From positions 1-64,000 of IMG/VR virus record IMGVR_UViG_3300045988_085326: a DNA stretch of 64,000 nucleotides. One strand, 5' to 3'. The DNA comes from a virus. Position 1 is the stretch's first letter. Each line of letters begins with the position of its first letter. The position numbers and the translations under genes are program-made. Positions 21,090 through 22,301 of this stretch are shown piece by piece. The notes below the pieces were generated by a model. That model saw nothing but the letters and a program-made list of their open reading frames with translations, made no database searches and was not told the origin of the DNA.

Positions 21090-22301
21090 ATGTTAAATGC
21101 AAAGGGAGAAAGAGAATTAGCATATGTAGTAAAGATTGATGGCATTTCTCCTATCGCCGGAGCTGATAGAGTTGAACTTGCTCATGTTGGTGGATGGAGA
21201 ATTATGGTAAAGAAAGGTCAGTTCCAAGTTAGAGACTATGCTATCTATTTTGAAATTGACTCTAAAGTGCCAGAAAAGGAGCCGTTCATGTTTCTTGAGT
21301 CTAAGCACTTTAAAGTTAAAACTCAGAAATACTTTAAGGGAACTGTTATTTCTCAGGGTCTGCTTATGGCACTTGATGACTTTATTTTGAACTCTGAAGT
21401 TCCTTCTTGGGTTCAGAGTCTTAAGTTCCAGATTTCTAAAGGAGTAGATATTGAACATGAGGGTGTAACCGAGGTTATCGGTGTTACCTACGCGGTTGAG
21501 GAAGATAATAAAAGAAAAGCAGCTTCTGTTGATAAATACAAGAAGATGGCACAGCGTCGTCCTAATATCTTTAAGAAGCCTTGGGCAAAATGGATGATGA
21601 GACGTGAGTGGGGACGTAAAGTTATGTTTGCACTCTTTGGTAAAAAGAAAGATAAGAAGAACGGATGGCCGAGCTGGGTTTCTAAGACAGATGAAGAGCG
21701 TGTACAGAACATGACTTGGATTCTTGAAGATAAGTCTGAATGGATTGCAACAGAGAAAATTGATGGAACTTCTACTACTGCTACATATCGTAGAACGGGT
21801 AGAAGGAAACACGAATTTTACATCTGTTCTCGTAATGTAGTCTTTGACAAACCAGATAAGGGTTGCTATTATGAGACTAATGTCTACACTGGAATGGCTG
21901 AAAAGTATCATTTTGAGGACGTACTCGCAGCTTTAGTTGAGAAGTATAACCTTGAGTGGGCAACTCTCCAGGGTGAGACTTATGGTGTAGGAATCCAAAA
22001 GAGGGAATATGGTCTTAAAGAACATGACTTCGTAGGATTTAATCTTATCTTCTCTGATAGAGGTCGTTTGAACTCTGTAGAGGCTAAAGAAATCTTAGCT
22101 GAATATGGTATTCCTTGGGTACCTATCGTTGACGAGCATTTCGTATTACCTGATACTGTAGAGGAGTTACTTGCGATTGCAACTGACAAGTCTGTAATTG
22201 ATGGCGGAATGCGTGAAGGTCTAGTATTCAGGTCTCAGGACGGAGCCCGTAGCTTTAAGGCGGTTTCCAATGAGTTTTTACTCAAGTACCATAATGGATA
22301 A
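21090..22301 (+). CDS. ATP-dependent RNA ligase (covalent nucleotidyltransferase)
   Basis: Motif I KIDGTS, motif IV EGLVFRS, motif V FKAVSNEF. Consensus promoter at 21027-21055. Confidence 0.75.
   Translation: MLNAKGERELAYVVKIDGISPIAGADRVELAHVGGWRIMVKKGQFQVRDYAIYFEIDSKVPEKEPFMFLESKHFKVKTQKYFKGTVISQGLLMALDDFILNSEVPSWVQSLKFQISKGVDIEHEGVTEVIGVTYAVEEDNKRKAASVDKYKKMAQRRPNIFKKPWAKWMMRREWGRKVMFALFGKKKDKKNGWPSWVSKTDEERVQNMTWILEDKSEWIATEKIDGTSTTATYRRTGRRKHEFYICSRNVVFDKPDKGCYYETNVYTGMAEKYHFEDVLAALVEKYNLEWATLQGETYGVGIQKREYGLKEHDFVGFNLIFSDRGRLNSVEAKEILAEYGIPWVPIVDEHFVLPDTVEELLAIATDKSVIDGGMREGLVFRSQDGARSFKAVSNEFLLKYHNG

Follow-up and report, generated by a model that had tools for sequence, protein, structure and literature searches.

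Background

Repair by phages of RNA that has been cut by the host is a decades-old idea, and its heal-and-seal logic is established for Pnkp and Rnl1 of phage T4 and has been predicted for jumbo phages (PMC7824862). The T4 proteins serve as a counter to the anticodon nuclease PrrC; the phosphatase is a DxDxT (HAD) domain that is fused to the polynucleotide kinase (Pnk), and the ligase, Rnl1, has a tRNA-specific C-domain and seals loops. The bacterial systems, i.e. Pnkp-Hen1 of Clostridium thermocellum and Pnkp1-Rnl-Hen1 of Capnocytophaga, have a ligase of the Rnl4 type. Clostridial Pnkp (CthPnkp) joins kinase, metallophosphoesterase and ligase in one polypeptide, and Pnkp1-Rnl-Hen1 is a precedent for a ligase that is encoded apart from the kinase-phosphatase, the phosphatase of Pnkp1 being of the T4 HAD type (PMC4411300). 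Here we describe a block of four genes, for an RNA ligase (Rnl) of the Rnl5 type, a zinc-finger protein (Znf), a Pnk and a metallophosphoesterase (MPE), in 64,000 nucleotides of DNA from an uncultured gut phage (positions 1 to 64,000 of IMG/VR record IMGVR_UViG_3300045988_085326, together called the window), which we consider, with moderate confidence, to encode a heal-and-seal RNA repair module.

Many of the individual parts have been described before. For jumbo phages, Iyer, Anantharaman, Krishnan, Burroughs and Aravind (2021) reported tRNA arrays, ATP-grasp RNA ligases, PNK, phosphoesterases, ROT/TROVE, Thg1, PIN-PhoH and NAD salvage, and read these repertoires as counter-defence; the phosphoesterases are calcineurin-like in 'a small number' of phages, the ligases are sorted into Rnl1, Rnl2 and rare divergent forms, and a L33-like or zinc-ribbon partner of the kinase is not mentioned (PMC7824862). 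The heal-and-seal parts list is already known from these phages, and what is new is the composition of the block: the phage studied here (~140-146 kb) is not a jumbo phage, and its module appears as a fixed set of four genes.

Regarding the sealing step, Rnl1 and Rnl4 are loop-sealing tRNA repair ligases, whereas Rnl5 enzymes act on nicked duplexes, in which they seal a 3'-OH/5'-PO4 break only if RNA makes up the strand with the 3'-OH; they prefer Mn2+ and are feeble in sealing single-stranded RNA (PMC4408790). The Rnl5 family, which has already been recorded from bacteriophages (PMC7261155), is spread over bacteria, phages, archaea and protists; its physiological substrates are not known, while knockout of DraRnl makes Deinococcus sensitive to radiation (PMC5397189).

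Compared with the T4 and bacterial systems, the locus is predicted to provide the same three activities and has a homologous kinase, with the P-loop and the RDDxR motif of T4 Pnk. It differs from T4 in that the phosphatase is a separate binuclear metallophosphoesterase (the kinase has no HAD domain), in that the ligase belongs to the nick-sealing Rnl5 family (it has no match to RNA_lig_T4_1, PF09511, in Pfam), and in the presence of Znf, which resembles ribosomal protein bL33 and has no counterpart in T4. It differs from CthPnkp in that kinase, metallophosphoesterase and ligase are three separate genes, and from the bacterial systems in having Rnl5 instead of Rnl4. Beyond the kinase fold, no defining feature of the T4 or bacterial Pnkp systems is found.

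Enzymes encoded by the block

A sequence-only reading of the window had proposed that three open reading frames (ORFs) form a split RNA repair toolkit of ligase, kinase and metallophosphoesterase. All three ORFs are present as it described them (Table 1), and so are the ligase motifs I, IV and V (EKIDGTS, REGLVFRS and SFKAVSNEF, at amino acids 222, 375 and 388).

Table 1. Position of the genes and other features of the window
Feature	Position	Strand	Matches and remarks
tRNA genes (11)	102-3743		ARAGORN and Rfam
'Ro60-like' ORF	3970-5454		Pfam DUF2828 + DUF7788; PHROG 850 'RNA-binding protein' 4.4e-121
Microbial-type poly(ADP-ribose) glycohydrolase-like protein	7453-8223		PF10021 6.1e-28; TIGR02452 6e-60; just upstream of MPE2
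MPE2, lambda-phosphatase/CthPnkp-type metallophosphoesterase	8249..8974	+	PrpA/PrpB, bacterial Pnkp and 1g5b matches
Minimal MntA-like nucleotidyltransferase fused to CodY-type winged helix	8977-10020		PHROG 388 1.5e-14; PDB 2b0l 1.9e-5
SPFH/Band-7/flotillin-like protein	10661-12214
Vault-like protein, 837 amino acids	12605-15118		Major Vault Protein shoulder 9.6e-22; Vault_3 repeat 4.7e-8
Thg1-like enzyme	16687-17493		PF04446 4.7e-30; PHROG 4717 1.9e-88
MPE3, metallophosphoesterase	17838-18674		PHROG 1649; no PDB sequence match
SpoT/RelA-type HD hydrolase domain protein	20423-21013		HD_4 1.9e-9; TIGR00691 2.1e-20; directly upstream of ligase
Predicted Rnl5-family ATP-dependent RNA ligase, 403 amino acids	21090..22301	+	Pfam, PHROG, NCBIfam and PDB profile matches
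Inserted cassette: RDF-like gene, PncA, PncB, NadD, NadE	22367..25883	+	Pfam matches (RDF-like: PF25682)
Terminator-like site	22715-22740		After RDF-like gene
Terminator-like hairpin, 10 bp + T run	25870..25895	+	Ends NAD cassette, just upstream of Znf
Znf, zinc-finger protein, 132 amino acids	25958..26356	+	Conserved partner gene directly upstream of kinase
Predicted stand-alone polynucleotide 5'-kinase, T4 Pnk/CthPnk type, 163 amino acids	26358..26849	+	Pfam, PHROG and PDB matches
MPE, binuclear metallophosphoesterase, aq_1665 (MPP_AQ1575) clade, 183 amino acids	26849..27400	+	Coupled to kinase
TM93, small predicted membrane protein, 93 amino acids	27401..27682	+	Last gene of unit; starts directly after MPE stop
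Terminator-like hairpin, 11 bp + T run	27686..27711	+	Closes Znf-Pnk-MPE-TM93 unit
PIN-PhoH2 protein (RNA helicase + RNase domains)	27825..29057	+	PF13638 + PF02562; NF053827 2.8e-30; own transcription unit
Terminator-like site	29146-29165		After PhoH2 gene
Replication/nucleotide block	31912-58870		DUF5662, RNase H, GyrB/GyrA, ATP-dependent DNA ligase, AAA_24, DnaB, RecJ-like DHH, SF1 helicase, Pol III alpha with PHP domain, guanylate kinase, anaerobic NrdD/NrdG
ATP-dependent DNA ligase, separate from RNA ligase	37286-38425

That the first ORF encodes an RNA ligase is borne out by profile searches. Its nucleotidyltransferase domain (amino acids 217-392) matches Pfam RNA_ligase (PF09414, 2.5e-20), the N-terminal part (amino acids 10-93) matches the PHA02142 OB domain (PF21189, 1.4e-19), PHROG 968 ('RNA ligase') covers the protein end to end (7e-60), and the only solved structure that is matched is NgrRnl of Naegleria gruberi (5cot, 2.4e-30, in a two-segment alignment). 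Ligase residues K223, D225, E296, E376, K390, R204 and T200 align to K170, D172, E227, E312, K326, R149 and T145 of NgrRnl, and R8 and D57 in the OB domain align to R4 and D53, while the counterpart of K121 falls in an unaligned lysine-rich insert. The nine NgrRnl residues with a counterpart here are important for that enzyme; K170 is the lysine nucleophile of motif I (KxDG), and the catalytic residues of motifs III, IV and V are among them. The OB-domain contacts to the ATP gamma-phosphate and the second metal are R4, D53 and K121 (PMC7261155). The protein ends 13 amino acids past Lys390 of motif V and has no C-terminal appendage. With an OB domain, a C-terminal nucleotidyltransferase domain, the NgrRnl residues kept and this C-terminal end, the ligase is therefore assigned to the Rnl5 type, and the ORF is predicted to encode an intact Rnl5-family (DraRnl/NgrRnl-type) enzyme.

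Relative to the family, which shares the domain layout and all alignable ATP- and metal-contact residues, the window ligase is ~60 amino acids longer, through a basic insert between the domains (amino acids 131-192, 20 Lys/Arg of 62), and it sits in a block with kinase, phosphoesterase and zinc finger. The match to NCBIfam TIGR02306 (RNA_lig_DRB0094; 3.6e-27, 95.1 bits) is under the equivalog cut-off of 151.15, so that it is a divergent member of Rnl5 and, by the NCBI rule, no equivalog. It does not group with DNA ligases (it falls in the RNA-ligase clade), and the phage has a separate gene for DNA ligation (Table 1). Rnl5 homologs of cultured phages (333 records) have ~30% identity, and in the single Pseudomonas phage locus that was inspected Rnl5 is stand-alone. 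An ORF of 264 amino acids on the opposite strand inside the ligase gene (21117-21911) was rejected as a chance ORF, since it lies wholly within a strongly homologous gene.

The kinase matches AAA_33 in Pfam (1.1e-21), PHROG 505 ('polynucleotide kinase', 1.1e-25) and, in the PDB, Pnkp1 (4xrp, 5.6e-7), T4 Pnk (1ly1, 4.9e-6) and CthPnk (4gp6, 8.4e-6); its best matches are thus polynucleotide kinases and PSTK, and no nucleoside or shikimate-type kinases. The T4 Pnk-like P-loop and RDD motif noted in the sequence-only reading were both recovered by alignment, GTPGSGKST (residues 9-17) with GCPGSGKSTW of T4 Pnk and SRDDVR (at residue 31) with NRDDYR. K15 and S16 correspond to K15/S16 of T4 and K21/S22 of CthPnk, and D33, R36 and T76 (DATH) to D35/R38/T86 and D38/R41/T80, respectively. 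In CthPnk and T4 Pnk, these are the essential P-loop Lys and Ser, the general-base Asp of the acceptor site, the orienting Arg, and the Thr that anchors the first phosphodiester, whereas the lid arginines R120 and R123 of CthPnk contact the gamma-phosphate of the nucleoside triphosphate (NTP) (PMC3902929). R117 aligns with R120, and R121 is one position off R123 across an alignment gap. The ORF is thus predicted to encode a polynucleotide 5'-kinase of the T4/CthPnk type in which no essential residue is missing.

The 120 closest kinase homologs among the matches listed are 107-175 amino acids long and have no appended domain. Elsewhere, this type of kinase appears to occur in fusions with phosphatases and ligases, as judged from the coverage of two PHROG profiles: PHROG 246 (417 positions) is covered by the kinase at 8-112 and by MPE2 at 176-395, which implies kinase-MPE2-type fusions in other phages, and PHROG 8238 ('RNA ligase', 737 positions) is covered by the kinase at 1-151. 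The closest cultured homologs (~33% identity; this kinase type is found in 196 cultured phage records) are those of Bacillus phages Tsamsa, Thrax and Izhevsk, in which the kinase gene, with a phosphohydrolase attached, overlaps an RNA ligase gene. In Thrax2 the pair consists of a Rnl1-type ligase (PF09511) and an overlapping Pnk-HD fusion, and no zinc-finger partner was detected. A role as 5-hydroxymethyldeoxyuridine (5-hmdU) DNA kinase, i.e. in DNA hypermodification, was considered and dropped, the sole match being partial (28 residues, E = 0.0098) and, with 15.8 bits, below the cut-off of 27. A scan of viral contigs with exact peptide patterns of the kinase only gave no relatives, which is a limit of the method, as tblastn recovered the kinase in loci found through its neighbours.

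The third ORF encodes an intact metallophosphoesterase, as had been proposed: it matches Metallophos_2 (4.3e-8) and PHROG 547 (3.3e-41), and its metal-binding motifs are all invariant across 36 homologs. Translational coupling to the kinase was likewise found, the kinase stop and MPE start overlapping as TAATG, with the ribosome-binding site AAGGAGG 7-13 nucleotides upstream. We infer that MPE is a 3'-end-healing enzyme. The proposed equivalence of the coupled pair to the kinase and phosphoesterase domains of CthPnkp, on the other hand, stands for the type of kinase and not for the phosphoesterase: the coupled MPE belongs to the aq_1665 clade, whereas the CthPnkp phosphatase is lambda-phosphatase-like, as is a second metallophosphoesterase of the window, MPE2 (PrpA/PrpB 3.3e-13; bacterial Pnkp phosphatase region 2.5e-4; lambda phosphatase 1g5b 1.6e-6). 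Both lambda phosphatase and CthPnkp have 2',3'-cyclic phosphodiesterase activity (PMC2190708). MPE2, the gene of which is directly upstream of Znf-Pnk-MPE in many relatives, is an alternative candidate for the healing of 2',3'-cyclic phosphate ends.

Among cultured phages, 1,391 records have the aq_1665-type MPE. Its neighbours within 5 kb in Listeria phage LMTA-94 include RtcB, a NADAR domain, a HAD phosphatase and a second RNA ligase, and an AAA_33 fragment is found 1 kb away from it in Sinorhizobium phage phiM12. Literature searches on aq_1665/AQ1575 and on DUF2828 (see below) found nothing relevant. With MPE3, three families of metallophosphoesterases are present in one phage, and related contigs again have all three close to the ligase/kinase block.

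A bL33-like partner of the kinase

The zinc-finger gene, which the sequence-only reading had overlooked, appears to be the tightest partner of the kinase. The N-terminal ~55 amino acids of Znf share the zinc-ribbon fold of bL33, with a Cys4 ribbon of ~50 amino acids (C15, C18, C43 and C46), a helix next to it, and the sequence pattern common to bL33 (CTxC...L.KK.C..C...T.H.E). Unlike bL33, Znf has a 75-amino-acid extension with a second Cys4 knuckle (C89, C94, C102 and C111), remains below the L33 cut-offs (19.6 bits against 40 for NCBIfam NF001764, E = 8.8e-4) and goes with a polynucleotide kinase, either linked or fused. There is no Pfam match, and the match of the Znf profile to bL33 in the PDB is weak (E = 0.07). 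The eight cysteines, in their two Cys4 clusters, are invariant among Znf homologs. Ribosomal bL33 touches the tRNA in the E site and can be exchanged on ribosomes, and the viral bL33 genes on record to date are almost exclusively aquatic (Mizuno et al. 2019, PMC6375957).

When 1.84 billion representatives were searched exhaustively with a profile, 660 relatives of Znf were obtained, most of which consist of the ribbon and the following helix only. Among these are three mutually divergent metagenomic representatives (P0407, P0442 and P0472; 244-246 amino acids) in which the ribbon is fused to an AAA_33 kinase. P0407 and P0472 keep the motifs of the window kinase (GxxxSGKS, VSRDxIRF, ADATH and NAKRxGR), while in P0442, which is more divergent, only the P-loop is recognisable. 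All three lack the second Cys4 domain and are therefore not read-through artefacts of adjacent genes. An MPE gene, 41% identical to that of the window at the protein level, follows 16 nucleotides downstream of the P0407 fusion gene. The fusions provide Rosetta-stone evidence, from which it seems that the ribbon works with the kinase. A L33-like ribbon as accessory domain of a kinase is not reported in the RNA-repair surveys that were examined.

In cultured phages, no full-length Znf homolog is detectable. In a BFVD search, L33-like proteins of Listeria phage A511 and of Bacillus phages came up, and unfiltered hmmsearch found no Znf homolog in the RNA-ligase/phosphoesterase cluster of Listeria phage LMTA-94 or in the Bacillus, Sinorhizobium and Pseudomonas phage loci. 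The second knuckle (residues 89-132, window 26222-26356; C-x4-C-x7-CWN-x6-C) is a separable module, for which no structural or functional match was found; elsewhere it follows, on the C-terminal side, a CotH-kinase-like fragment in P0465 and a lipoprotein-like N-terminus in P0500.

Operon structure and conservation of the block

The Znf stop is 1 nucleotide ahead of the kinase ATG. Together with the overlap of kinase and MPE, the immediate start of TM93 and the ribosome-binding sites, this gives what looks like one tightly packed transcription unit, Znf-Pnk-MPE-TM93, bracketed by hairpins (Table 1); altogether, 9 terminator-like sites were found versus 3.8 +/- 2.2 expected. TM93, for which no family matches were obtained, is kept downstream of MPE in nine related loci (L004, L005, L013, L014, L072-L074, L085 and L086). 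Because of the hairpins, the ligase gene must be placed in a different transcription unit from kinase and MPE in this phage.

The genes between ligase and Znf include a complete Preiss-Handler salvage pathway (isochorismatase/PncA, NAPRTase, NMN/NaMN adenylyltransferase and NAD synthase; 22847-25883), which forms a single unit bounded by terminators. This cassette is not part of the repair module and is probably a counter to NAD-depleting host defences. The same PncB-NadD-NadE-Znf-Pnk arrangement is shared by a contig of a Lachnoclostridium metagenome-assembled genome (L078:3640-6228), and an exactly matching contig from run ERR414233 has the gene order of the window.

For comparison, loci were seeded in three independent ways, i.e. 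with the ligase (n = 12) and MPE (n = 56) in IMG/VR and with the Znf profile in GTDB genomes (n = 20), after which the window proteins were placed in them by tblastn and the loci were dereplicated at 90% nucleotide identity, giving 40 clusters. The order that comes back is Rnl, Znf, Pnk and MPE, on one strand. Starting from the ligase, Znf-Pnk-MPE is found downstream in 7 of 11 clusters, with one more in which MPE directly follows Rnl. Starting from MPE, the kinase is immediately upstream in 23 of the 28 evaluable clusters (in 20 with gaps of at most 365 nucleotides), and a ligase is present within 10 kb in 14 of 29. Starting from Znf, the kinase is just downstream in 14 of 20 loci, and the ligase just upstream in 10 of the 13 with enough flank. 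Where both are present, Rnl is upstream of Znf, co-oriented and separated from it by 94-579 nucleotides, in 11 of 16 clusters; because of this direct adjacency, the separation of 3.66 kb in the window is best read as an insertion that split an ancestral Rnl-Znf-Pnk-MPE block.

Identity to the window proteins goes down to 35-45% across these loci, and the flanks (Ro-like, MPE2, MPE3, Thg1, PhoH2 and NAD genes) are shuffled, from which it follows that the block is maintained against rearrangement. It therefore seems that the combination of Rnl5, L33-like ribbon, Pnk and aq_1665-type MPE is a fixed block in uncultured gut Firmicutes phages. The idea that the three enzymes belong to one toolkit holds insofar as synteny links ligase, Pnk and MPE; it is weakened by the position of the ligase in another unit and by the roughly half of the loci that have no Rnl within 10 kb of Pnk-MPE. 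In four clusters (L012, L052, L054 and L062) the gap between Pnk and MPE is ~0.86-1.1 kb, versus <100 nucleotides, which suggests an inserted gene, possibly for a homing endonuclease.

The genome contigs that carry Znf are phage-like, up to ~139 kb long, and binned with gut or rumen Bacilli, Lachnospiraceae, Erysipelotrichaceae and Clostridia. The endolysin of the window (glucosaminidase + amidase_2 + SH3_3) is in line with a Gram-positive host. No match to the 10-kb region was obtained by Megablast among 50,697 GenBank phage records, so that the phage is without a close cultured relative.

Proposed mechanism and alternative explanations

From the enzyme families, their intact active sites, the operon structure, the conserved linkage and the fusions, we infer the substrates, the order of the steps, the formation of a complex and the target of a repair pathway. 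With its fully conserved catalytic residues, Pnk would move a phosphate from an NTP onto the 5'-OH of broken RNA. The bL33-derived ribbon would work with the kinase, given their strict adjacency and the natural gene fusions, and is probably an RNA- or ribosome-binding adaptor. A metallophosphoesterase (the coupled MPE, MPE2 or both) may strip the 2',3'-cyclic or 3'-phosphate to leave a 3'-OH, which is the weakest step of the scheme. Finally, as judged from the biochemistry of DraRnl and NgrRnl, Rnl5 would be adenylylated on Lys223 and seal the 3'-OH/5'-PO4 break with the ends held in a duplex-like context, i.e. in a tRNA or rRNA stem or across a break that is bridged by tertiary structure. The likely purpose would be to reverse damage done by host ribonucleases to the translation apparatus during infection of gut Firmicutes. 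In support of this reading, the window contains a separate DNA ligase and RNase H for replication, a Thg1-like gene adjoins Pnk-MPE in some relatives, and analogous pairings are present in cultured phages (Bacillus phage Thrax2 and Listeria phage LMTA-94).

A number of observations weigh against such a module. Repair of anticodon loops, as put forward in the sequence-only reading, is not implied, since Rnl5 is a nick-sealing family that requires a duplex and is feeble on single-stranded RNA, unlike the loop sealers Rnl1 and Rnl4 (PMC4408790); given the preference for duplex nicks, the enzyme is more likely to act on breaks within the stems of tRNA or rRNA than on open anticodon loops, and there is a small chance of a role on DNA. 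The MPE clade has no known substrate, and its likeness to the CthPnkp phosphatase is at superfamily level only. In this phage the ligase appears to be in a separate transcription unit, 3.6 kb away; Znf and MPE occur without Pnk in five loci (L024, L027, L045, L081 and L084); and the syntenic loci are all from uncultured phages of gut and rumen that form one broad group, so that the synteny may in part be inherited and not selected. Neither a Hen1-type 2'-O-methyltransferase, as present in the bacterial systems, nor a match to any other methyltransferase family was found among the ~55 window ORFs scanned (ORFs of <90 amino acids and a few others were left out).

In one alternative, the genes do not form one pathway at all. 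Znf-Pnk-MPE could do another job (such as to modify or dephosphorylate a nucleotide signal, a protein of the host or a factor bound to ribosomes), with Rnl5 as an independent accessory gene that is often close by since accessory genes gather in this region. This would fit with the lack of Rnl within 10 kb in 15 of the 29 MPE-seeded clusters, its separate unit here, the stand-alone Rnl5 of the Pseudomonas phage, the unequal numbers of cultured records (1,391 for aq_1665-type MPE, 333 for Rnl5 and 196 for the kinase) and the fact that the region is a visible insertion hotspot (NAD cassette, HD_4 block). It is nevertheless unlikely: Rnl, when present, is usually immediately upstream and co-oriented at the short distance given above, the same adjacency is found in the Znf-seeded loci, the kinase has the full acceptor-site set (D33, R36 and T76) beyond the P-loop (PMC3902929), and the PHROG profiles indicate kinase-ligase and kinase-phosphatase fusions elsewhere. 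Alternatively, the substrate could be DNA, with Pnk and a 3'-phosphoesterase cleaning the 5'-OH/3'-phosphate breaks left by host nucleases and Rnl5 sealing nicks at short RNA patches made by a repair or primase-type polymerase (RNA 3'-OH to DNA 5'-phosphate). Both NgrRnl and DraRnl are efficient in sealing nicked duplexes of an RNA-OH strand and a 5'-phosphate DNA strand, loss of DraRnl makes Deinococcus sensitive to ionising radiation (PMC4408790, PMC5397189), and T4-type Pnks are generally known to act on DNA too. However, the module lies in an island of RNA, tRNA and NAD genes, outside the replication block (31.9-58.9 kb) with its own DNA ligase and RNase H; the partner domain of the kinase derives from a ribosomal protein that contacts rRNA and tRNA; Thg1 stands beside Pnk-MPE in relatives; and the analogous kinase-ligase pairs of cultured phages use Rnl1-type tRNA ligases. 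Taken together, this makes DNA-end repair quite unlikely.

Maturation of the phage's own tRNAs, in which the enzymes would tidy or join the processing ends of the tRNA array alongside Thg1, is very unlikely. The window does have 11 tRNA genes, among which a tRNA-His without an encoded G-1 and with discriminator C that the phage Thg1 plausibly matures, and a gene for this tRNA 5'-end enzyme directly adjoins Pnk-MPE on the upstream side in some relatives (L043, L049, L050 and L068). All 11 tRNAs are continuous and intron-less, however, so that no ligation step is evidently needed, and bacterial RNase P and RNase Z are generally known to leave a 5'-phosphate and a 3'-OH, which need no healing. 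Repair of host-cut RNA by the four-gene block keeps our preference.

With regard to where such repair would take place, it is conceivable, though on the whole doubtful, that the ribbon docks the kinase, and thereby MPE and Rnl5, near the bL33/E-site of the ribosome or on tRNA or rRNA, so that cuts made by host ribotoxins would be repaired on the spot. If so, this would be the first RNA repair machine that is targeted to the ribosome or tRNA, the first physiological role for Rnl5, the function of which was called 'uncharted' by its discoverers, and the first function for the widespread aq_1665-type phosphoesterases of phages. Irrespective of docking, the block gives three orphans (Rnl5, aq_1665-type MPE and the L33-like ribbon) a shared and testable context, i.e. 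healing and sealing of structured RNA of the translation apparatus, and it predicts that gut Firmicutes have RNA-cleaving defences against large lytic phages. As such it extends an existing idea and does not introduce a new principle.

Other genes in the region

The other genes of the window had been cited as a supporting cast for tRNA repair. The 11 tRNAs and the matches to YqeY (PF09424, 1.2e-12) and Thg1 stand, while for Thg1 there is a simpler explanation. The tRNA-His of the phage has a 7-bp acceptor stem (G102-C173), discriminator C174 and a T at position 101 (base -1), so that its G-1 is not genome-encoded, and the Thg1-like enzyme may add it, which would be maturation and not repair.

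The label 'Ro60-like' could not be confirmed for ORF 3970-5454, which has the DUF2828, DUF7788 and PHROG 850 matches only, with no sequence match to TROVE or Ro60 in Pfam and the PDB. Rfam finds just the 11 tRNAs in the window, with no Y RNA at gathering score or other structured RNA beside this gene. The ORF recurs beside MPE2 or Pnk-MPE in many related loci. Between it and the YqeY and Thg1 genes sit those for the SPFH and vault-like proteins, the latter being unusual in a phage. SPFH/Band-7 and Rot/TROVE modules were reportedly proposed as RNA-repair scaffolds by Burroughs and Aravind in 2016, which is not used as evidence here.

The glycohydrolase-like protein upstream of MPE2 may serve to erase ADP-ribose marks that host defences put on their targets. 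ORF 8977-10020 begins 3 nucleotides past the MPE2 stop; the PHROG label 'nucleotidyltransferase' raised the option of a CCA-adding enzyme, which was ruled out by its composition of MntA-like nucleotidyltransferase and CodY-type helix-turn-helix. The HD protein upstream of the ligase looks like a small alarmone hydrolase and, being without a homolog in all 68 related viral loci, is specific to this phage lineage. Defences of the toxSAS type add pyrophosphate to the 3' ends of tRNA, and the HD protein could either strip this group or degrade (p)ppGpp/(p)ppApp. In many clusters the region downstream of MPE includes the PhoH2 gene, which is loosely linked to the module. In the second half of the window, GIY-YIG endonuclease genes are present at 39074 and 48794, and the anaerobic reductase NrdD/NrdG fits a strictly anaerobic gut host.

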